This document shows positions 50,215 to 60,919 of a DNA stretch of 64,000 nucleotides, piece by piece. A model generated the notes under the pieces. That model ran no database searches. It saw only the letters and a program-made list of their open reading frames with translations, and was not told the origin of the DNA. The stretch covers positions 34,089 to 98,088 of the forward strand of contig JAOZPM010000001.1 in the NCBI GenBank assembly GCA_029932765.1, read 5' to 3'. Within the stretch, counting starts at the first letter, position 1, and every line of letters starts with the position of its first letter. Source of the DNA: Bacteroidales bacterium (GTDB taxonomy: Bacteria > Bacteroidota > Bacteroidia > Bacteroidales > UBA1556). The translations under genes were made by a program, and so were the position numbers.

Positions 50215-50778
50215 TTAGTACTCATGCATATTGCTTGGTTTAATAAAATACTTTATAATAAACATGGAGGATAATTCCTCAATAACTTTTCGCAAAACAT
50301 GGCCTACCCTATGTTCATTGATCTTTGTATTCTCTAATTCTATATCCATAATAAACTGATTTTTAGGTTTTATTACTGATTTGTGGCTGGCCCTTACATC
50401 TTTATTCTTATATTTATATATATCTTCATTAATAGTATTAAGCAATCTATTGCGGACATTACTACTAATAACCGAATTAGCAGATTGATGAATATTACTA
50501 CCCTTTATTTTATATTTTCTTTCTTTTAATAAATCATCATTCTCAGCTTTCTTATTCCTTATAAATAATCCATAGATAATAGCTTTTAGAGAGAATATAT
50601 ACTTTACTATTTGGTAAGTTCCAATTTCTATTTCATTAAACACTTTATTAATAGCAACATCCTCTGACGACTCATAATAAAGCTCACAACTTCCTTTATA
50701 TTCCAAACCTTCCACTTTAAAAATACTATTGCCTAACTCATAAAATCGATCCGATAAACTTAAAACTGCTACACCCAT
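50215..50778 (-). CDS. Hypothetical protein, no recognisable domain
   Basis: 187-aa ORF with an ATG start, K/N/I-rich. It is divergent from 51067-52194. A candidate minus-strand -7 box CAAAACTA lies at 50850-50857. Confidence 0.45.
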   Translation of the reverse strand: MGVAVLSLSDRFYELGNSIFKVEGLEYKGSCELYYESSEDVAINKVFNEIEIGTYQIVKYIFSLKAIIYGLFIRNKKAENDDLLKERKYKIKGSNIHQSANSVISSNVRNRLLNTINEDIYKYKNKDVRASHKSVIKPKNQFIMDIELENTKINEHRVGHVLRKVIEELSSMFIIKYFIKPSNMHEY

Positions 50779-50779
50779 A

Positions 50780-50994
50780 ACTTAATTTACTTAATTTTTG
50801 TATTAATACCTAAAGAATTGCCAAGTCCAAAATAATGACTTAACAGATGCAAAACTACAACCTAAAACATAGTAATATCAAGCTTTTTAAGCGGTTTCTT
50901 TCTACTTAATTAATATTTTAAGCAGCTTAATAAGTACTTAATATTACTTAAGCTACTTATCTTATACTTAATTTTTACTTAATAATAATTAAGT
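50780..50994. promoter_or_regulatory. Cluster of (T)ACTTAA motifs, including five copies phased at 9-11 bp plus one inverted copy
   Basis: ACTTAA/T starts at 50780, 50789, 50838, 50904, 50936, 50946, 50955, 50966 and 50977, with inverted TTAAGT at 50989. The cluster lies in the divergent spacer just upstream of the predicted promoter of 51067-52194. Confidence 0.5.
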
Positions 50995-51023
50995 AAAAAC
51001 TTGCATTCAGTTAAGAAATGCTT

Positions 51024-51031
51024 TATATTTG
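51024..51031 (+). promoter_or_regulatory. -7 box TATATTTG upstream of 51067
   Basis: Exact TAnnTTTG, 35 nt upstream of the ATG. A CTTG (-33-like) element at 51000-51003 lies about 20 nt upstream. Confidence 0.4.
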
Positions 51032-51066
51032 CAAACTCGAATCACTGAATTTGAAGATTAAAGGCA

Positions 51067-52194
51067 ATGACTGCAACACTACAAAAAAATCATTTTGAAG
51101 TAATTGATTTACTAGCACAAAGCATTAGCTTGGTGCCTGGATTTCAGCATGCGTATGCTTTTTATTACCACCCTATTGATAAAGAAATACAGGCTGCTTA
51201 TGCTACCAATGATAGTATTAGCACCATAGATACAGGCTTTGATAAGTTATCGATTAACATTGCAAAACTTAGAAAATCAAAGCAAAAGATTGAATGGGTT
51301 GATAAAAATGAGATTCCTTTTGACAAGAGAACTAAGAATCTAGAAATTCAGAAAGAAGTTTTTGATGAATTAAAACATCATATACTACTGTATAGAGTAA
51401 AGAATACTTTTGATAATAGCTACGACTTACTATATGTTTTCTTTAAGGCTGACTCGTCAAATTTTGGAATTAAGAATTCCAATAATAATCTTTCTACTGA
51501 TCAAAAGAGTATTATCTCTACGCTAATCACAAATTCTTTTAATATTTTTCTCAAACAACGAAAAGAAAATAATAAGGCTCAGGAGCTTTTGCGTCAAGAT
51601 TTGGCAAGAGTGAATCAGTACCTTAAAAAATATAAAAGCAGTTCTGAAGTTAAGAAATACAAAAAAATAATTAAAAGCTACATCTACTCTACTTTTGATA
51701 TTGAAATAAACAAACTTAATCTTATTGGGAACTATTCCGAAGAGATTGATGAATTAATGAATTCATATACAGGAAATATAAATACCATTCAGAATAATGT
51801 AAAACAATGTGTTGCAATGGCATATCGTATTCAGAATCCTATAATTGGTAGTATTATAAATATTGATGAAATTATTTACCAATCATTTTTTAGTACTATT
51901 GAAAATGAGTCTGTTACTTCTACAAATTATTCGTCCATTGATAGCCGAAAGCAAAAAGCTGTTCAATTCTTAAATAATCTGGAAAATGCTGCTCGTGTAG
52001 TTTTATCTAAAGGTGATAATATTACTGGTGTAAAAGTAGGTCAAGCAATGGAGGCGCCAATAACTGCTCCTGCAATTAGCGATTATATTAAAAAGTATCA
52101 AAAACCAATAAAGCTCCTCTGTCAAGAAAATCCAGAGCAATGGCTAATTATTCAGAAATCATTTAATCCTTTGAAAAATATACTTTCTGCATAA
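51067..52194 (+). CDS. Hypothetical protein, no recognisable domain
   Basis: 375-aa ORF with an ATG start. Its composition is typical of coding sequence in this genome, and I recognise no motif. It converges on the phosphonate operon with a 7-nt gap. Confidence 0.55.
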   Translation: MTATLQKNHFEVIDLLAQSISLVPGFQHAYAFYYHPIDKEIQAAYATNDSISTIDTGFDKLSINIAKLRKSKQKIEWVDKNEIPFDKRTKNLEIQKEVFDELKHHILLYRVKNTFDNSYDLLYVFFKADSSNFGIKNSNNNLSTDQKSIISTLITNSFNIFLKQRKENNKAQELLRQDLARVNQYLKKYKSSSEVKKYKKIIKSYIYSTFDIEINKLNLIGNYSEEIDELMNSYTGNINTIQNNVKQCVAMAYRIQNPIIGSIINIDEIIYQSFFSTIENESVTSTNYSSIDSRKQKAVQFLNNLENAARVVLSKGDNITGVKVGQAMEAPITAPAISDYIKKYQKPIKLLCQENPEQWLIIQKSFNPLKNILSA

Positions 52195-52201
52195 TTAGGC
52201 T

Positions 52202-55200
52202 TTACTCCTTATCTAATCTAGTCCAGTTATCAGCATCGAATACATTATCCTTAACTTTATACCAATAGCTATAAGAGAATTTTTTGCTTTTATCAATACT
52301 CTCTGCCCACCAAGCAATAAATGCTGGAAGCGTACGAGAAACTATGCTATCATTTGTAGGGTTTATCTCATCAAACATAATAGAATTAACATCAGCGTTC
52401 GACATAAATCTATTATCAATAAGCATATCTCCTTTTTCATTAAAATCTTTCACCAATAATAATGGATTTAGTGAAAGTAGATGTTCTTGGCTCACCTTTT
52501 CCTCATTAGTATTTATAAATGGAAAATTAACTTCTATCTCTCCATCATATCGATGCCAAGGCACTCCATGGTCCGAAACTATAATAATTTTAGTATTATC
52601 GTAAACACCATTTTTTTTCATCCATTTAACCCAATGGGCAAAAGTTTCTATTGTCCATCTATTAGTAGTCAAAGGTGAAACATTAGTATGTAGCTCACCT
52701 GTATTATCAACATAATTCCAAGGAAAATGAGTATTAAATGAATAAAGTAGTATTAAATTTGGTTGATCATTCTGAGTAGTTGAAATATGAGGTAATAAAC
52801 GTAGAAAGTTATAGCTATTAGCCATCCAAGAATTCTCATGCATTTCTTGCTTAACAAAATATGATTTCAACCAACTACCTTCATTATAAACTAAAGATTT
52901 AAGAACCAAAGGAACACAATAAAGCAAAGCAGTTTCAATAATTAGTTCCGAATTATCTGATTTTACACTATTAATTCCTAGTTCATAATTATATGAATCC
53001 CACTCTTTATTCCATCTTGGCAATAGTATATCATAACCTATTTCTTCAATATTAGTATATGGAAATTTATTCATTGTAACAGCAAAACCATTATTATGGG
53101 CTTTATCTATAAGAGATTTCATTGCTGTTGTCATTTTCTGACGAATAGTGTGTACAGTATCTTTATCCAATACATTTGGCACAAAATCAAAGCCTCCAAT
53201 AAGAGCAGGCATTGTGGAGTTTGTTACTCTCGAAACTGACAGAGTATTTCTATACCACTTAAACCCTGTATATTCATTTACAATATTAGGATTATCTTCT
53301 ATAATAGTTTCCATTGCTAGCCCTTGAAACATATCGGGCATAAGAAGAATAATATTCTTTTTTGTTTTAGAAAAATTAATAATTAATTCACCTTCTATAA
53401 CTCTTTCAACTTGATTTTTGCTACTAAAAAATTTATCAGATGAGATACTTTTGACAATACTCTGAGTTGCAACTACTATATTTAGCACTATTAAGCTATA
53501 AACTATATATGTAGATTTTTTTCGTTTTAATAACCAAACAAATATAAAGAACGAACTAAGTATTAACAAACTCTCTACAATAAAGTAGATAATCGGAGCA
53601 TCGAGATTTTTCTCTTCAGAAAAGCGATTAACCTGCAATGTGCCTAAATCAAAAGGGAATAGCGTATTATTAAAGAATGCTATAAATACAATTACTAAGA
53701 GTGTTATTAGCATAATAAGCTTTGTTCTTTTGCGAAGAAAAAAGAATACTACTAGTAACAAAATCAAGACAATTGCTAAATATTGAGCACCTTTTATAAT
53801 AATATCAATAGCAGAAAATTCAAAAGCTTCGGGAAAAGATGAAAAGCTCATAAGTGGTCCCCAAATGAAAATCTGACCAAAAATATATAATGCAGACAAA
53901 AGGAATAATAAATAATAATTGCTAATTTCAAATAATTGTAACTTCTTCTGCTTTTGATAAAAGAAAAACAAAACACTTGTAACAATAATTCCTACACTAC
54001 GAAATGTAAATAAGAAACTATTCTCCATAGAGTAGCCTATCTCATACACTGTCAATAACTTATCAGCCAATTGCAAAATACCTAGAGTATTACTAAATTG
54101 TAGTATAATAAGAGGCAATACTAATAGTAACGAAAATGATTTATACCTTAAAGTTTTTAGATCTCTTAAGTAATATCCAATTGCTATAAGCTCAATGGGA
54201 ATAAGAAATAATAAAGAAACAAAATCAAGGCTTTTATTCATTTCTTGATAAAAGAATATTGAAGACATATGAAAATATGCAGCAAAAAACAATAAGGAAA
54301 GGTATACCCTAGGCTCAATTTCAATATTTATTATACTTATAATAGATTTCTTAATTTGTTCTTGAAAAAGAATATAGATAATGTATAATACTATTGATAT
54401 AAGTAATGCTAATCCTATTCTCAAAGCAAACAAATCATAAGTATGGTTAAGTGCCCAGTTGACTTGTATTATCACAAATGCTATAGCAAGGATATAAAAT
54501 ACTTTTAGAGACGCAATTAACCTTTCCTTAAAAGAAGACATTTCTAGTTCAATTACCTGAGTATTTACTGTTAAGGTTCGCTTTATTTTAAACACTTCTG
54601 GATTAGTAATAAACAACCTAAAAAAGCTAAAAACATTATTTAGTGTCCAATAAAGCAAAAGAGCAGATGGTAAATTATACAACATTATTAAAAATACTGC
54701 AGCAATAACTATCATTTGATTTCGTTCCTTTTTTTCGCCATTAATTGTATAGAAGTAAACTGTAACTAAATTCACTATTGTCATTAATACTGGAAGTATA
54801 TTTATTGCTCCCATAAATGAATCTGCCTTACTTAAGTCATTGATAAAAAGGAAACTCTGACCAATAAGTGGAGAATAATGCTCCAAAAACTGATAGGCAG
54901 CAATAAAAAATGGAATCTGAATAAGTAAACTCAGCACAGGAATTAGTGCACGAGTTGGGCTATAATTGTGTTGTCTATTGAGTGTTTTTAGATAGTAATA
55001 CCTCTCCTGCCCTTTATAGCAAGCTTTTATTTCCTCTACCAAAGGTTTCATCCTCTGTTTTATGGTATCATCTTTCTTTTTTGCCTTTTCAATAAAAATA
55101 AAAATTGGCAATAGAATTAATGAAATAAATAAACTTAATAATACAATGGCAACGCCATAATCTCCACTAAGATTATATGAAAATAAGAAAATATATTTTA

Positions 55201-55243
55201 TTATAAAAACAAAAGGGCTCATTATAATTTCAAATACATCCAT
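52202..55243 (-). CDS. Fusion protein: YidC/Oxa1-like insertase domain + large polytopic block + C-terminal sulfatase/alkaline-phosphatase-superfamily (LtaS/EptA-like) domain
   Basis: 1013 aa. The N-terminal ~215 aa (approx. 54600-55243) resemble YidC/Oxa1 (GDYGVAIVLLSLFISLILLP, KPLVEEIK..YKG, LLLYWTLNNVFS). Many TMs follow (approx. 53370-54600). The C-terminal domain (52202-~53370) has NIILLMPDMFQG and IIIVSDHG motifs. Confidence 0.6.
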   Translation of the reverse strand: MDVFEIIMSPFVFIIKYIFLFSYNLSGDYGVAIVLLSLFISLILLPIFIFIEKAKKKDDTIKQRMKPLVEEIKACYKGQERYYYLKTLNRQHNYSPTRALIPVLSLLIQIPFFIAAYQFLEHYSPLIGQSFLFINDLSKADSFMGAINILPVLMTIVNLVTVYFYTINGEKKERNQMIVIAAVFLIMLYNLPSALLLYWTLNNVFSFFRLFITNPEVFKIKRTLTVNTQVIELEMSSFKERLIASLKVFYILAIAFVIIQVNWALNHTYDLFALRIGLALLISIVLYIIYILFQEQIKKSIISIINIEIEPRVYLSLLFFAAYFHMSSIFFYQEMNKSLDFVSLLFLIPIELIAIGYYLRDLKTLRYKSFSLLLVLPLIILQFSNTLGILQLADKLLTVYEIGYSMENSFLFTFRSVGIIVTSVLFFFYQKQKKLQLFEISNYYLLFLLSALYIFGQIFIWGPLMSFSSFPEAFEFSAIDIIIKGAQYLAIVLILLLVVFFFLRKRTKLIMLITLLVIVFIAFFNNTLFPFDLGTLQVNRFSEEKNLDAPIIYFIVESLLILSSFFIFVWLLKRKKSTYIVYSLIVLNIVVATQSIVKSISSDKFFSSKNQVERVIEGELIINFSKTKKNIILLMPDMFQGLAMETIIEDNPNIVNEYTGFKWYRNTLSVSRVTNSTMPALIGGFDFVPNVLDKDTVHTIRQKMTTAMKSLIDKAHNNGFAVTMNKFPYTNIEEIGYDILLPRWNKEWDSYNYELGINSVKSDNSELIIETALLYCVPLVLKSLVYNEGSWLKSYFVKQEMHENSWMANSYNFLRLLPHISTTQNDQPNLILLYSFNTHFPWNYVDNTGELHTNVSPLTTNRWTIETFAHWVKWMKKNGVYDNTKIIIVSDHGVPWHRYDGEIEVNFPFINTNEEKVSQEHLLSLNPLLLVKDFNEKGDMLIDNRFMSNADVNSIMFDEINPTNDSIVSRTLPAFIAWWAESIDKSKKFSYSYWYKVKDNVFDADNWTRLDKE

Positions 55244-56505
55244 TATTCTTGCCCTCCTTTATTATCATCCAAATGGATATTATCTACAATAGTAATAATC
55301 TGGTCAGCAGCTACTTCTCCTGCTTTTCCAAAGTTAAATACCGATTCGTTTTTCAAGTCAGATAATTGCATCTCTGGAGGATTCAAAATTAGATTATTAA
55401 CAATATCACTAATATTTGACACATCATTCTCATCAAATATCTTTCCTAGTCTTTTTCGCTCTTTAACTTCCCACATCTCATAATTAAGTTCGCTACCTTC
55501 AAAACCCAAGATATCATCAAAATTTGTTTTAAGCAGAAGAACTGGCTTCGAATAAAGAAAAGCAAAATCCCAAATTACTCCCGATAGATCACTTATCATA
55601 AGATCAGCCTTTGCCATACTCTCCGTTCCCAAGCGATTATTATCTATACTAAAGCGAGCTTCATTAACAAATTTTTTCTCTATATCAGATATAACTTTTG
55701 GAAAGCTTACATAGCTTTGTGGGTGTGGGCGTAAAATAATATTATAATTACTATTGTTTAATAATGCATCAAAAAAATCTGTACCAAACCTATTAATTAT
55801 TGAATACTCCTTCCATGTTGGAGCAACCAATACTACAGGATTTTTATTTTCATTTTTTGGTAAATGGGAAATCTCATCGAGCATTATATCATAATATGTA
55901 AGCCCTGTTTCCAAAAGAAGTTTTTCATCAGTTTTTCTTTGTTTTTCTAATTGCCTAATCCCTTTAATTTGATGAGGCCCTGAACAAAATACTGAATCAA
56001 AATAGTCGAAGGCAAATTTTCGGTAAGTAAAAACATCTATTGGAGCATGTACAATATGCCCATAATGACTAACATTTTTTGAACGACGAATCATCATAAC
56101 ATCAAGCTGTGGTGTAGTCATTCCCACAAATTTTGCTTTAAGTTTACTCAAATATACCGATGTCATCGTTATATTACCAATATATTTACTTTGGTATAAA
56201 ACTGAAGAATATCTTAAACCCGGATCATCTTTATCAGATGATAAATAAACACAAGCCCTACCTTTTAGCTCCAACGCTCTAATTATTGGTAAAAATACAT
56301 TCCAGTATTGTTTTCCTTCAGAATAAAAGATAATATCAGAATTACCAAACTCATTGTCGGTACTAAAACCATTGCCAAGGACAAAATTCTTAAGTTTATA
56401 AAAAAAACCACGCAAAGAATATGCTACTGTAGCAACCACTGCTACAATTATATATAATAATGCACTGGTAGATGCTGGGTCTATATATAATAAGTGAGCA
56501 AGCAT
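55243..56505 (-). CDS. CDP-glycerol glycerophosphotransferase (TagB/TagF) family protein with N-terminal TM
   Basis: 420 aa. The C-terminal region DLMISDLSGVIWDFAFLYSKPVLL resembles the TagF-family donor-binding region. The stop and start overlap by 1 nt (TAATG) at both ends. Confidence 0.65.
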   Translation of the reverse strand: MLAHLLYIDPASTSALLYIIVAVVATVAYSLRGFFYKLKNFVLGNGFSTDNEFGNSDIIFYSEGKQYWNVFLPIIRALELKGRACVYLSSDKDDPGLRYSSVLYQSKYIGNITMTSVYLSKLKAKFVGMTTPQLDVMMIRRSKNVSHYGHIVHAPIDVFTYRKFAFDYFDSVFCSGPHQIKGIRQLEKQRKTDEKLLLETGLTYYDIMLDEISHLPKNENKNPVVLVAPTWKEYSIINRFGTDFFDALLNNSNYNIILRPHPQSYVSFPKVISDIEKKFVNEARFSIDNNRLGTESMAKADLMISDLSGVIWDFAFLYSKPVLLLKTNFDDILGFEGSELNYEMWEVKERKRLGKIFDENDVSNISDIVNNLILNPPEMQLSDLKNESVFNFGKAGEVAADQIITIVDNIHLDDNKGGQE

Positions 56506-57626
56506 TAATTATTAGTGTTTAAAAAATCCTTTATAGTATCATTACTAACCCTACGAGGATTATTATTAAGTCTTTCAAAATTAATACTTCTGAGCATTAA
56601 TTTCGTATCTATATTTCCAATTAATTTATTAATATTTAGTTCTAGTCCTATTTTTTTAAGAAAATCATTAAGAATATCAAATGCCGTATTTTCATCTGCA
56701 TTCATTATTTCCAATAACTTTCTAATTCTAACTTTAACATCTATAGAACCTTTATTTAGTGTACAATCTACATCCGTAACTTCTGAGTTAAATTTCAGAA
56801 AGAAAGCTAAACTTAAACCTACAGCATGGCCATGTGCAATACCGTAATAACTTGTAAAGAAATAAGACAGAGCGTGTGGCGCAGTGGTTTTAGTTATATT
56901 AATGGCCTTACCTGCAATAAACGAAGCTTCAAGCATTTTAGCTTTAGCATTTTCATTATTATCAATTACAGCTGCTTCAATATTATTCCATATCATCTCG
57001 AATGCCTCTAAAGAAAGCTCTTCTGATTTAGCATTTGCATTAATACTCCATTGCGACTCCATAGCTTGTGCCATGGCATCTACTCCCGTTACAGCAATTA
57101 AATATGGACTTGCCGAAATTAAAAATCTAGGTGATAAGAATACATATTTAGGAAGAATACTATCATTGGAAACAGAGTATTTCTGTTTATTGATATATAC
57201 AACTGCAAAATGCGTAGCTTCGGCTCCTGTACCTGCAGTAGTTGGAATTGCCATTAAGTCAATATTGTTATTATCAAAATCAATATCTCCCTTAATAAGG
57301 TTCTCAACTTCTGTGGGCTGAGTAGCCATTCCCGAAATTAATTTAGCCATATCAATAACGCTTCCACCACCAATTGCTATAATCAATTCGTAATCGCCTT
57401 TATTAAATAATTCTATTCCTTTCTGTAAATCAATACTATTGGGATTTACATCAAAATTAGAGAAACTTGAAAGCTGATTATTAAATTTATTCGCAATAAA
57501 CAATTCAGCACCAGAGTTTTTATATGAATTTTTACCATGGACTAAAAATATTTTATTGGAATCATATTTTGCTAAAATATCATCTAATATATTAATATCG
57601 TTTTCTCTGATTATCTCTTGCTGCAT
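56505..57626 (-). CDS. Iron-containing alcohol dehydrogenase, predicted phosphonoacetaldehyde reductase
   Basis: 373 aa. Fe-ADH motifs GGGSVIDMAK and His-rich HALSY...GIAHGHAVG. The function is inferred from its position after the pepM and ppd genes. Confidence 0.65.
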   Translation of the reverse strand: MQQEIIRENDINILDDILAKYDSNKIFLVHGKNSYKNSGAELFIANKFNNQLSSFSNFDVNPNSIDLQKGIELFNKGDYELIIAIGGGSVIDMAKLISGMATQPTEVENLIKGDIDFDNNNIDLMAIPTTAGTGAEATHFAVVYINKQKYSVSNDSILPKYVFLSPRFLISASPYLIAVTGVDAMAQAMESQWSINANAKSEELSLEAFEMIWNNIEAAVIDNNENAKAKMLEASFIAGKAINITKTTAPHALSYFFTSYYGIAHGHAVGLSLAFFLKFNSEVTDVDCTLNKGSIDVKVRIRKLLEIMNADENTAFDILNDFLKKIGLELNINKLIGNIDTKLMLRSINFERLNNNPRRVSNDTIKDFLNTNN

Positions 57627-57630
57627 ATTC

Positions 57631-58761
57631 CTAATTATCTTTTAGAAAGCTCATAAATTTACGCTTATTACTCAATGGCGGTATAGAAGGTCGTCCAAGA
57701 TTTTTTCTTGAACCAATTTTTACTCTCACTTCTATTAATGAGGGGCCATCGCTCTCTCTAACCTCTTCAAATGCCTTATTAAATGATTCTATATCACTTA
57801 CAGTTATTGCATATTTATAATTGTTAGCCTTTGCCAATTTAGGAATATCAATATCAAAGCCAACTGTGGCTTGGCCTCCAACCGATTCGTGAGCGCCATT
57901 ATTAATAATAATATGGATTAAATTACTAGGGTTAGCTTTACCAATAATAGCCATTGAACCCATATGCATTAATAATGCTCCGTCACCATCAATACATACA
58001 ACTTCTGTATTTGGCTTTGTAATGGCAACACCAAGAGCTATCTGACTAGCATGTCCCATAGAACCTACCGTTAGAAAATCTCTATCATGGTTTTGATCTA
58101 TCTTATCTCTATATTCAAACAATTCGCGAGAAGTTTTGCCAGTGGTAGAAACTATTACCTCACTCCCATTCTGCTTATCTACAATGGCTTTAATAACATC
58201 CTCACGGCTTAGTTTATACTCTGTTTCTATTTTTGAATTCATAGAGTATTTTTCGAATGTATCTTTACGAACCACAATGGCAAAAGGACTTGAGCTTTGC
58301 GAAATTTGCAAAACTGCCATATTTAATTGCAGAATTGCCTCATTCTCATCAGGACTTAATACCACATATGGAATTTGAGCTGCTTCTAAAAATGCAATTG
58401 TCTGTGCACCCTGTGCAATATGCTGTGGTTCATCCTTAATATTAGGTTCGCCACGCCAGCCTATCATAAGCAACATAGGAATTCTATATACCGCCTCACT
58501 CGTGAGCGACATTAGTGGATTTATGGCATTCCCAAAACCTGAGTTCTGCATATATACCATTGGAATTTTTCTGCTTGCCATATGATAACCCGCTGCCAAA
58601 GCAATTGCATTACCTTCATTTGCAGCAATTATATGATTACTATCATCAGTATTATCAGATATATATGAGCATATTTCCTTTAATAGTGAATCTGGCACTC
58701 CCGTAAAAAATTCAATATTATTTTCCTTTAATTTTAGGAAAAACTTCTCTGTATTAATCAT
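57631..58761 (-). CDS. aepY: Phosphonopyruvate decarboxylase (ThDP-dependent)
   Basis: 376 aa. The N-terminus FFTGVPDSLLKE and the ThDP motif GDGALLMHMGS...IIINNGAHES are typical of Ppd/AepY/Fom2. Confidence 0.85.
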   Translation of the reverse strand: MINTEKFFLKLKENNIEFFTGVPDSLLKEICSYISDNTDDSNHIIAANEGNAIALAAGYHMASRKIPMVYMQNSGFGNAINPLMSLTSEAVYRIPMLLMIGWRGEPNIKDEPQHIAQGAQTIAFLEAAQIPYVVLSPDENEAILQLNMAVLQISQSSSPFAIVVRKDTFEKYSMNSKIETEYKLSREDVIKAIVDKQNGSEVIVSTTGKTSRELFEYRDKIDQNHDRDFLTVGSMGHASQIALGVAITKPNTEVVCIDGDGALLMHMGSMAIIGKANPSNLIHIIINNGAHESVGGQATVGFDIDIPKLAKANNYKYAITVSDIESFNKAFEEVRESDGPSLIEVRVKIGSRKNLGRPSIPPLSNKRKFMSFLKDN

Positions 58762-60077
58762 TATTTAGTTCCTGGAATTAAGTTTAATATTTCTTTTATT
58801 GACATACATTTATCATCAACTTCTAGTGAACGTTCATTTTTTAGAATACTCTCTGCTGTTTCCATCATTGCAGGGTAAGCGCTTCGTAATAAATGATTTG
58901 CATAAATAACAATGTTTACTCCAGCATCACTTAATTGCTGCTCTGTAAAATGATTATAACTTGAAGGAACAGCTACCAAAGGCACATTTCCATCTATCTT
59001 CTTATATCTATTGCAAAACTCCATTATCTCCTCACCATCCTTCTCCTTACTATGAATCATAATTGCATCAGCACCAGCCCCTATATAAGCTTTAGCTCTT
59101 TTAATAGCATCATCATTTCCTTGATTAAGTATAAGGCTCTCTATACGAGCTATTATCATAAAATCCTTGGTTACCTGAGCCCTTTTACCAGCAGATATTT
59201 TCTCACAAAACTTCTCAATAGTATCCTGAGTTTGTGCTACGTCTGTTCCAAAAAGTGAATTTTTCTTTAAGCCTGTTTTATCTTCAATAATAACTGCCGA
59301 AACACCTAATCTTTCAAGCGTTCTAACAGTAAAAACAAAATGTTCAGGAATACCGCCAGTATCGCCATCATAAATAATTGGCTTAGTGGTTACTTCAAGA
59401 ATATCATTTAAACCATGTAAGCGCGAAGTCACGTCAACTGCCTCAATATCCGGCTTTCCCTTAGCTGTAGAGTCCGTTAAACTACTAAGCCACATTGCAT
59501 CAAATTCTCTTTTTGCTCCATCTTTATTTACAAATGCATTCTCAACAATAAGTCCCGTAAGACCATTATGAGCTTCCATTACTTTCACTATTGATTTTGC
59601 ATCAATTAATCGTCGCAATTTCGACATGCGAACTTCTGGCGTAGTTCCAATCTCTTTTATCGATTGAATAAGTTGTGTTGATGAAATACCCTTAGTATAT
59701 GGCACTTCGTACAACTCTCCTCCCCATTGTTTTAGTGTATCAATTACATTCTGGCGAGTCTTTTGTTGAACACCATTTTTCCAATCATCGCCATGAACAA
59801 CATAATTAGGTTTCAATTCAATAAGGTTATTTGTATAATCAAGCTCATTTTGAGGCACTACTTTACTAACACCTTTAATGCTTTCTACAACAATTTTTCT
59901 TTGCTCATATTTTAATGCAGGAAGTCGTTTATAGCTCGCAATTGCTTTATCAGTTAATAAGCCAATTGTTACTACTCCCAACATACTTGCTTCCTTTATT
60001 ATATTAAGGTGTCCAGGGTGAATTAAGTCTGCACTCATCCCCACATATACTGTTTTATTTGCCATAGTTATTGTCAT
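58761..60077 (-). CDS. aepX: Bifunctional cytidylyltransferase - phosphoenolpyruvate mutase (Fom1-like architecture)
   Basis: 438 aa. The N-terminal ~135 aa carry the HxGH nucleotidyltransferase motif ([15 protein letters not shown]). The C-terminal domain carries the PepM signature [10 protein letters not shown] (EDKxxxxxNS, nt 59256-59285). An alternative ATG lies at 60065. Confidence 0.85.
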
Positions 60078-60244: not shown

Positions 60245-60919
60245 ATGAATTCAAACAAATTAATGGATCCCATTGGAAAATTAATGGGATTAAGATATAA
60301 ATCGCATCCATGGCATGGTGTTGATATTGGTCCTGAGAGCCCTGATGTTATTACTTGTTTTGTAGAAATGGTACCTACCGATACTGTAAAATATGAAGTT
60401 GATAAGGCTTCTGGATATTTAATTATAGATAGGCCACAGAAATACTCTAACGTTATTCCGGCACTATATGGCTTTATACCACAAACGTATAGCGATGAAA
60501 GTGTTGCCGAATATTGTATGGAGAAATCTGGTAAAAAAGGCATCAAAGGAGATCAAGACCCTATAGATATTTGTATCCTTACAGAAAAAGTAATTAGTCA
60601 TGGCGATATCTTAGTGAAAGCTAAACCTATTGGGGGATTTAGAATGATTGATGATAACGAATCTGACGATAAGATTGTTGCCGTGCTTCGCAATGATGCT
60701 TTATATGCAGGATTTAATGATATATCAGAAATTCCTGAGACTGTTATTAATAGACTTAAGCACTATTTTCTAACTTATAAAGATCTCCCTGGTAATAAGA
60801 AAGAAGTTGAGATCACTCACACCTTTGGTAAAGAAGAAGCTTTGGAAATAATTGTTAGGTCACAAAAAGATTATCAAGATAAATTTGAAAAACTTGGTAA
60901 TTTGCTAAGTAGCGTATAA
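60245..60919 (+). CDS. ppa: Inorganic pyrophosphatase (family I)
   Basis: 224 aa. Motifs HPWHG, YEVDK..G, DQDPIDICIL and DDKIVAV. Confidence 0.88.
   Translation: MNSNKLMDPIGKLMGLRYKSHPWHGVDIGPESPDVITCFVEMVPTDTVKYEVDKASGYLIIDRPQKYSNVIPALYGFIPQTYSDESVAEYCMEKSGKKGIKGDQDPIDICILTEKVISHGDILVKAKPIGGFRMIDDNESDDKIVAVLRNDALYAGFNDISEIPETVINRLKHYFLTYKDLPGNKKEVEITHTFGKEEALEIIVRSQKDYQDKFEKLGNLLSSV

Follow-up and report, generated by a model that had tools for sequence, protein, structure and literature searches.

The gene described here lies on the minus strand of a 64,000-nucleotide stretch of the Bacteroidales bacterium assembly GCA_029932765.1 (contig JAOZPM010000001.1, positions 34,089 to 98,088; this whole stretch is hereafter called the window, and positions are counted from its first letter). 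It encodes a protein of 1013 amino acids in which a YidC/Oxa1-like membrane module, a polytopic block of transmembrane (TM) helices, and a predicted periplasmic domain of the alkaline-phosphatase (AP) superfamily are joined in one chain. The fusion is real and conserved; it is an unstudied variant of the envelope head-group transferases, one into which a repurposed YidC fold has been incorporated. Together with a TagF-like enzyme encoded directly upstream, it constitutes a widespread unstudied system, by which a carbon-phosphorus compound is here probably attached to the cell envelope. We give about even credence to a more specific reading, according to which the fusion is the integral-membrane half, and the TagF-like enzyme the other half, of a conserved two-part installer of envelope head groups that is here wired to 2-hydroxyethylphosphonate (HEP).

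A preliminary description of the window, made from its letters alone, had reported an open reading frame (ORF) of 1013 residues at 52202-55243. The ORF is confirmed on the minus strand, and its translation contains all the peptides that had been quoted (GDYGVAIVLLSLFISLILLP, KPLVEEIKACYKG, LLLYWTLNNVFSFF, NIILLMPDMFQG, and IIIVSDHGVPW). The plus strand of this interval is full of stops and has no open frame, and a plus-strand reading was dropped for that reason. The start codon is supported by the conservation of M1 and the N-terminus in 60 homologs.

The first ~215 residues had been likened to YidC/Oxa1, and residues 1-220 are indeed a true YidC/Oxa1 core, by hidden Markov model (HMM) as well as by fold. 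Residues 29-214 score above the curated cut-offs of both Pfam 60KD_IMP (PF02096; 87.5 bits, cut-off 35) and TIGR03592 (97.3 bits, cut-off 84.3). The module was matched by phmmer to B. halodurans YidC2 (E 1.7e-7), and a family profile search of PDB sequences returned the YidC proteins of T. maritima and E. coli (E 2.6e-9 to 7e-7). When an AlphaFold2 (AF2) model of residues 1-605 (predicted local distance difference test, pLDDT, 82.7) was compared with the PDB by Foldseek, it aligned to 3wo7 and 3wo6 with a template-modelling score (TM-score) of 0.73 and a root-mean-square deviation (rmsd) of 3.0-3.1 Å over 210-216 columns at 24-26% identity, followed in rank by the E. coli and T. maritima structures. 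Within the family, conservation peaks in this module, whose C1 cytoplasmic hairpin (residues 52-98) contains many invariant residues. The module appears to be under purifying selection, with a ratio of nonsynonymous to synonymous substitution rates against a same-genus genome of 0.13, compared with 0.23 at the start of the TM block (small counts in both cases).

The groove of the module departs from that of canonical YidC. The positive charge in TM1 that characterizes the YidC family at this site (R72 in B. halodurans YidC2, R366 in E. coli) is missing: in the phmmer alignment to 3wo6, R72 aligns to Ser41 of the fusion, which is invariant in 60 close homologs. Among 134 family representatives taken from a 1.8-billion-protein library, the position is occupied by N in 58, S in 49, and T in 21 (128/134 together), and by R or K in 0/134. 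The genome's own canonical YidC has Lys at this position, reading LTILLKIALFPI where the fusion reads LSLFISLILLPI. Furthermore, the polar residues N158, T200, and N202 are invariant or near-invariant in the family, and the canonical YidC of the same genome has M, F, and A in their places. Since the module has the sequence and the fold of YidC yet lacks its groove charge, it is best named YidC-derived rather than "the insertase YidC". The NCBI and JGI records label these 950-1230-aa proteins "membrane protein insertase YidC". Such an annotation is misleading, as it hides both the enzyme domain and the lost groove charge.

Because the genome also encodes a housekeeping YidC (653 aa, 183 bits, on another contig), to which the module is only 24% identical, the module is an extra paralog that need not be the housekeeping insertase. 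The preliminary idea of a repurposed YidC fold thus gains support from three sides, namely the family-wide loss of the groove Arg/Lys, the presence of a housekeeping YidC, and the occurrence of stand-alone modules in the same cassette. It could be argued instead that the module acts in cis, inserting and folding its own 11-TM block and translocating the periplasmic domain of ~400 aa, without taking part directly in the chemistry. The complete YidC fold has been kept, as have the groove residues Q109, T155, Q176, and N203, which are common to the module and the genome's own YidC, and the groove Arg is not known to be strictly essential for the function of E. coli YidC. We nevertheless regard this explanation as quite unlikely: a housekeeping YidC is already at hand, the stand-alone modules of the cassette have no fused polytopic or AP part to insert, and the positive charge has been lost across the family while new polar residues were gained. 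In addition, LtaS, EptA, and other polytopic AP-domain enzymes need, to our knowledge, no private insertase.

Past a disordered linker, the YidC-like core of five TM helices is followed by 11 further TM helices, on which the AF2 model and a hydropathy scan agree, so that the preliminary count of more than ten holds. No fold for this block was found in the PDB by Foldseek with the model of residues 1-605, the next match after YidC having E > 2; matches to PglB, MurJ, G-protein-coupled receptors, and transporters (E > 2, probability <= 0.15) were dropped as noise. The length of the block ranges from 316 to 613 aa across paralogs. The 13 K/R of the C1 hairpin make it strongly basic and set the orientation of TM1, and the loops carry ~40 K/R on the side taken as cytoplasmic versus ~6 on the side taken as periplasmic. 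Because of the 16 TM helices in total and this strong positive-inside bias, the enzyme domain is predicted to be periplasmic, in line with the placement originally proposed; a cytoplasmic location does not agree with the topology.

The C-terminal domain is modelled with confidence: in the full-length AF2 model (pLDDT 85.6), this alpha/beta domain lies mostly above 90. Its Foldseek matches are sulfatases, LtaS (4uoo, 2w5q), MCR-1 (9nww), and PbgA/YejM, with E 1e-6 to 1e-7 and a probability of 1.00, which bears out the assignment to the AP superfamily and the likeness to LtaS and EptA. By sequence the similarity is faint, with a Pfam Sulfatase (PF00884) score of 15.8 bits that falls below the 25-bit cut-off for membership and with sulfatases and LtaS (E 0.0037) returned by a profile search. 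The predicted active-site residues are highly conserved, and D637, T674, and D891-H892 occupy canonical positions of the secondary structure. D637 is preceded by the strand 630-636; position 674 is T in 81/82 representatives and S in the remaining one, and is invariant among 60 close homologs; and the VSDHG stretch around D891-H892 aligns to LtaS and sulfatase chains. H839 would presumably play the same role as its counterpart in the LtaS and EptA sites. Taken together, D637, T674, H839, and D891-H892 fit a site of the LtaS/EptA/MCR-1 type, with a Thr nucleophile and a metal centre, and do not fit a sulfatase site. A formylglycine sulfatase was also considered and dropped, as the segment SRVT674NSTMPAL lacks C/S-x-P-x-R: its Thr is invariant, and both the Pro of position +2 and the Arg of position +4 are missing.

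Members of the AP superfamily are often promiscuous hydrolases, and many sulfatases stand among the top Foldseek and profile matches. One might thus suppose that the domain is a periplasmic phosphonate monoesterase, phosphodiesterase, or sulfatase that serves scavenging or remodelling. This appears very improbable to us: in place of the C/S-x-P-x-R motif there is an invariant Thr (in SRVTNSTMP), which LtaS, EptA, and MCR-1, all of them transferases, also have; the close linkage of the gene is with a biosynthetic operon and with no catabolic one; and the domain is anchored by 16 TM helices, in the manner of enzymes that act on lipids.

The same architecture was found in hundreds of other genomes. 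Full-length collinear homologs of ~950-1230 aa fall into > 250 clusters, a search with the N-terminal module returned 910 cluster representatives at E <= 1e-30, and 81/133 examined module representatives are collinear fusions to an AP domain. In species-representative genomes, at least 474 loci were counted in five phyla (Bacteroidota, Chlorobiota, Spirochaetota, Firmicutes, and Proteobacteria), isolates included; named carriers are Treponema putidum ATCC 700334 and Treponema sp. TIM-1 among the Spirochaetota, and Azohydromonas caseinilytica and a Shewanellaceae metagenome-assembled genome (MAG) among the Proteobacteria. The fusion had been called unusual, which holds for the literature; in genomes it is not rare. 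That the ORF is an assembly or frameshift artefact joining separate genes is effectively refuted by these collinear homologs and loci, the isolate Treponema putidum ATCC 700334 among them, and by a same-genus genome that is 95% identical over residues 1-478 without a break of frame. The source genome is a fragmented MAG of 233 contigs, and no positive support for an artefact was found.

As had been noted, the fusion is the last gene of a phosphonate operon. The operon comprises five genes, in order a cytidylyltransferase-phosphoenolpyruvate mutase fusion (CyTase-PepM), a phosphonopyruvate decarboxylase (Ppd), an iron-dependent alcohol dehydrogenase (Fe-ADH), the TagF-like gene, and the YidC-like fusion. 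At three of the four junctions, stop and start codons overlap by 1 nt, including that of the fusion, where TAATG combines the TAA of the preceding gene with the ATG of the fusion; at the remaining junction, 4 nt separate the Ppd gene from the Fe-ADH gene. The gene downstream of the fusion is convergent, with 7 nt between the stops. All elements of a HEP branch are present: PepM (TIGR02320, 419 bits, cut-off 319.55), Ppd, a predicted phosphonoacetaldehyde-reducing Fe-ADH (a clear family match, whose best NCBIfam match TIGR03405 Phn_Fe-ADH stays below the cut-off at 148 vs 423.7 bits), and the fused cytidylyltransferase. Judged by these family assignments, the three enzymes should make HEP and activate it with cytidine monophosphate (CMP) as CMP-HEP, the compound that is made by the Fom1 cytidylyltransferase-PepM fusion (PMC6697681).

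The preliminary description had proposed to look for co-occurrence of the fusion with pepM. Of 301 genomes sampled at order level, 7 contain the fusion and 16 contain PepM, and all seven fusion genomes carry PepM, with pepM ~5 kb upstream of the fusion on the same strand (hypergeometric P = 2.8e-10) and with CyTase-PepM, Ppd, Fe-ADH, and the TagF-like gene directly upstream of the fusion. Two same-genus genomes without the fusion are also without PepM. The TagF-like partner is present in exactly the seven fusion-bearing genomes and in 0/9 PepM genomes that have no fusion. The same cassette occurs in Lentimicrobium sp. S6, several Bacteroidales MAGs, a 6-Mb genome, a Spirochaetaceae MAG, and the Shewanellaceae MAG. 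The co-occurrence with pepM thus stands for the Bacteroidales; it does not extend to the family as a whole, where the universal partner is the TagF-like gene. Considering loci of at least 12 kb, the TagF-like gene lies beside the fusion in 20/21 and PepM within the locus in 15/21 from Bacteroidota and Chlorobiota, and the corresponding figures in other phyla are 17/20 and 4/20, which gives 37/41 overall for the TagF-like gene. Because it is kept beside the fusion where PepM is mostly absent, the constant partner is the TagF-like gene rather than PepM, and it is the head-group supply module that varies.

Several loci illustrate this variation. Treponema putidum ATCC 700334, a cultured oral strain that offers an experimental handle on the system, carries two consecutive TagF-like/fusion pairs (L055:1749-9832; 405 + 901 and 460 + 953 aa). 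No PepM is found within 7 kb upstream of the two pairs, so the cargo in this strain is possibly not a phosphonate. In a Lachnospiraceae MAG (L079:3883-9598), an NTP_transf_3-aminotransferase fusion of the PntC-AEPT type, the architecture of Treponema denticola Tde1415, immediately precedes the TagF-like gene and the YidC-like fusion, an arrangement that points to a version of the installer supplied with aminoethylphosphonate. At L009:4744-11222 (JGI metagenome 3300038679), a YidC-like module of 222 aa stands alone after the genes for the TagF-like enzyme, CyTase-PepM, Ppd, and Fe-ADH, and the next ORF, of at least 1893 aa, has methyltransferase, GT1, and GT2 domains. Bacteroidales cassettes contain one to three tandem fusion paralogs (e.g., L005:3646-13045 and L006:7090-13393), with two or three in 13/21 of the Bacteroidota loci of at least 12 kb. 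The TM blocks of these tandem paralogs differ in length (316-613 aa), and the catalytic residues are kept in all of them. In L005, a ParE/antitoxin pair and a PDDEXK gene interrupt the cassette.

The TagF-like partner begins with an invariant LLYIDPASTSALLYI segment, followed by one TM helix and then by basic residues, an arrangement that would imply a short N-out tail and a cytoplasmic catalytic domain. Across five cassettes, the partners are 66-74% identical, compared with only 37-44% for the fusions of the same genomes, and a distant Spirochaetaceae homolog keeps the motif as YIDPATGS. These features have to be weighed in favor of a different role for the YidC-like module within the same pathway. 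Here the module would be no conduit; its lateral groove would hold the N-terminal tail and TM helix of the TagF-like enzyme, with the C1 hairpin contacting the partner's catalytic domain, so that an insertase-substrate interaction would have been frozen into a stable enzyme complex. Anchors with a short N-tail and an N-out orientation are classical YidC substrates. Moreover, the TagF-like enzyme and the module co-occur even where the module is a stand-alone protein of 222 aa, and also without PepM, and the C1 hairpin is rich in invariant residues. Docking explains the linkage to the TagF-like gene and the conserved hairpin as well as the conduit model does. On the other hand, the invariant Asp of the tail would, if seated in the groove, predict that the groove Arg is kept, yet it has been lost. 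Docking also gives no account of how a head group reaches the periplasmic active site, and one homolog (in L003, see below) has no TagF-like neighbour with which to dock. We consider docking possible and take it seriously, though on balance we doubt it.

The two-part installer that we favor would work in four steps. First, the TagF-like enzyme would transfer the HEP-phosphonyl group from CMP-HEP to a lipid of the membrane or to a lipid-linked acceptor on its cytoplasmic side. The polar head group would then cross the membrane along the YidC-derived groove, with its arginine lost and extra polar residues gained, possibly helped by the 11-TM block. Subsequently, the periplasmic metallo-domain would take over the group by forming a covalent adduct at Thr674, in the way that LtaS and EptA use their lipid donors. 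Finally, the group would be passed to the final envelope acceptor (a glycan or a lipid) or be polymerised. What the analysis supports directly is the arrangement of the domains, the conservation of the catalytic residues, the predicted placement of the enzyme domain outside the cytoplasm, and the linkage of the genes. The substrates, carrier, and acceptor of the installer and the conduit role of the groove are proposed.

The idea of a conduit is based on two considerations. Apart from the fusion, the conserved cassette encodes no polytopic membrane protein (a single N-terminal helix is predicted for the TagF-like enzyme), and a donor that is CMP-activated in the cytoplasm needs a route through the membrane. 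Furthermore, E. coli YidC and other insertases of the Oxa1 family have been shown, in vitro and in simulations, to scramble lipids through the same hydrophilic groove (PMC11047089). A scramblase or flippase role of the YidC-like module, which the preliminary description had raised, may be envisaged.

A number of points weigh against the installer. An anionic head group might favor a cationic groove rather than one without arginine. The placement of the catalytic residues relies on sequence and secondary structure rather than on three-dimensional superposition. The Pfam match of the TagF-like partner is partial (residues 187-329), and a PDB sequence search with it gave no match. Since most loci outside the Bacteroidota have no PepM, HEP can be only one of several possible cargoes. 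A 1002-aa homolog (P0005, 58% identical; L003:9015-13009, GCA_022076565.1, contig JAKLPE010000091.1) has no PepM or TagF-like gene within 10 kb. It adjoins the pyrophosphatase gene ppa and a TAXI/NMT1_3 gene at the syntenic position, and CyTase-PepM, Ppd, Fe-ADH, and the TagF-like gene are absent from the site, where only a 311-bp spacer is left. As P0005 sits alone beside ppa, the enzyme may not be strictly dependent on the PepM/TagF-like supply line. Lastly, no paper on the family was found in the literature on YidC-sulfatase-phosphonate combinations, YidC-LtaS fusions, or CMP-aminoethylphosphonate transferases.

A bolder version of the installer can also be formulated, in which the YidC fold has become a substrate-dedicated translocation groove inside an enzyme: the TagF-like protein loads a lipid carrier with HEP, the arginine-less groove flips it, and the LtaS-like ectodomain polymerises or grafts the cargo. 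We hold this to be unlikely. If true, it would be the first YidC-fold translocation groove inside an enzyme in the Oxa1 superfamily, and the Gram-negative (Bacteroidota) envelope could carry, as the product, either a teichoic-acid-like poly(hydroxyethylphosphonate) or a phosphonate-capped glycolipid. A polymeric product is conceivable because HEP carries a hydroxyl of its own. The tandem paralogs would then act as primase and polymerase.

The attachment of PepM-pathway phosphonates to bacterial surfaces is an acknowledged gap. The phosphonate tailoring steps have been called "enigmatic" by Rice et al. 2019 (PMC6697681), which was also the only paper found on CMP-aminoethylphosphonate phosphonate transferases in the literature from 2019 onward. 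The cassette provides a testable candidate for the missing transferase/export step, and cultured relatives of the system are at hand in Treponema putidum ATCC 700334, Treponema sp. TIM-1, Azohydromonas caseinilytica, and Lentimicrobium sp. S6. Beyond phosphonates, the large clade represented by the 910 clusters, with its intact YidC fold that is devoid of groove charge and tied to an enzyme, would be a natural experiment on roles of the Oxa1 groove other than protein insertion. It also bears on the claim that insertases are lipid scramblases (PMC11047089).

Table 1. Coordinates of the fusion gene, its domains and key residues, and the upstream genes of the operon (positions in the window).
Feature	Position	Strand	Basis
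Whole ORF: YidC-like module, 11-TM block, and predicted periplasmic AP-superfamily domain	52202..55243	-	1013 aa plus stop
YidC/Oxa1-like 5-TM core with C1 cytoplasmic hairpin, residues 1-220	54584..55243	-	HMM, PDB sequence matches, Foldseek
Ser41 codon, at groove Arg/Lys position of canonical YidC	55121..55123	-	phmmer alignment to 3wo6 (R72)
11-TM polytopic block, residues 238-601	53441..54532	-	AF2 helices, hydropathy
AP-superfamily domain, LtaS/EptA-like, predicted periplasmic, residues 620-1013	52205..53386	-	Foldseek, profile matches
Asp637, predicted metal ligand, end of strand beta-1 (NIILLMPD)	53333..53335	-	Invariant in 60 and in 82 sequences
Thr674, predicted catalytic nucleophile, start of helix 674-683 (SRVTNSTMP)	53222..53224	-	Conservation, DSSP
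His839, conserved histidine (NTHFPW)	52727..52729	-	Invariant among 60 close homologs; H in 70/74 aligned representatives
Asp891-His892, predicted metal ligands (VSDHG)	52568..52573	-	Invariant; follow strand 884-889
TagF-like (Glyphos_transf) partner, 420 aa	55243..56505	-	Pfam PF04464, E 1.3e-9
Fe-ADH, predicted phosphonoacetaldehyde reductase yielding 2-hydroxyethylphosphonate	56505..57626	-	Pfam Fe-ADH
Phosphonopyruvate decarboxylase (Ppd)	57631..58761	-	TIGR03297, 495 bits, cut-off 312.5
CyTase-PepM, Fom1-like architecture	58761..60077	-	CTP_transf_like and PEP_mutase (Pfam)

Around the operon, a putative inorganic pyrophosphatase gene at 60245-60919 (+) is divergently paired with it, as it is also in L003; the Pfam call was made in L003, and the ORF in the window was assigned by its syntenic position. 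Such an enzyme would pull the cytidylylation, which releases pyrophosphate, forward. At the 3' end of the fusion, two ORFs at 50215-52194, of 187 aa (-) and 375 aa (+), have no Pfam or NCBIfam match. Because they are not conserved beside the cassette in other genomes, they are not considered part of the system.

When compared with known systems, the N-terminal module shares with YidC/Oxa1/Alb3 (3WO6/3WO7; E. coli 3WVF/6AL2) the 5-TM core, the cytoplasmic coiled-coil hairpin, and the polar groove residues (Q109, T155, Q176, N203) that it has in common with the genome's own YidC. It differs from them by its groove Ser (N/S/T in the family) and the extra polar N158, T200, and N202, by the addition of 11 TM helices and an enzyme domain, and by the tie of its gene to a TagF-like enzyme, unlike housekeeping yidC, which is flanked by protein-biogenesis genes. 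PbgA/YejM (5 TM helices and an AP-like domain; 6XLP, 6V8Q, 6VAT) is among the best matches of the C-terminal domain, with a target-normalised TM-score of up to 0.55. PbgA is a sensor of lipids and lipopolysaccharide that is not known to be catalytic, whereas the fusion family keeps the full set of nucleophile and metal ligands.

With LtaS/LtaP and EptA/MCR-1, the fusion has in common an extracytoplasmic AP-fold domain placed after a polytopic anchor, a nucleophile position occupied by Thr, and conserved Asp and Asp-His metal ligands. The multiple tandem paralogs in many genomes are also reminiscent of the LtaP/LtaS pair, which reportedly acts as primase and polymerase in lipoteichoic acid synthesis. 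Unlike in these enzymes, the anchor consists of 16 TM helices rather than 5, and the sequence similarity to them is marginal (the PF00884 and LtaS profile scores given above). No fold match to the TM anchors of MCR-1, LtaS, or PbgA was found by Foldseek with residues 1-605, and a membrane anchor shared with full-length PbgA or MCR-1 was not retained, the full-model alignments (622-684 columns) having an rmsd of 16-18 Å. The predicted cargo would moreover come from a nucleotide-activated cytoplasmic donor via the TagF-like enzyme, and not from bulk phosphatidylglycerol or phosphatidylethanolamine.

The partner itself resembles the TagF/TarF CDP-glycerol glycerophosphotransferases in matching PF04464, and it should likewise use a CMP-linked donor. 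It differs from them in its partial Pfam match, in its own N-terminal TM helix with the invariant YIDPASTS motif, and in that the cassette contains no TagGH-type ATP-binding cassette exporter. The early steps of fosfomycin biosynthesis (Fom1 CyTase-PepM, Fom2 Ppd, and FomC Fe-ADH) have the same architecture as the supply genes of the window and the same predicted product, CMP-HEP; unlike fosfomycin clusters, the operon of the window has no antibiotic tailoring genes. Finally, the phosphonyl-tailoring (Pnt) clusters of Rice et al. 2019 (PMC6697681) employ LicD-like enzymes or glycosyltransferases where the cassette has the TagF-like enzyme and the YidC-like fusion downstream, and they share with it the use of nucleotide activation for the tailoring of the cell surface.

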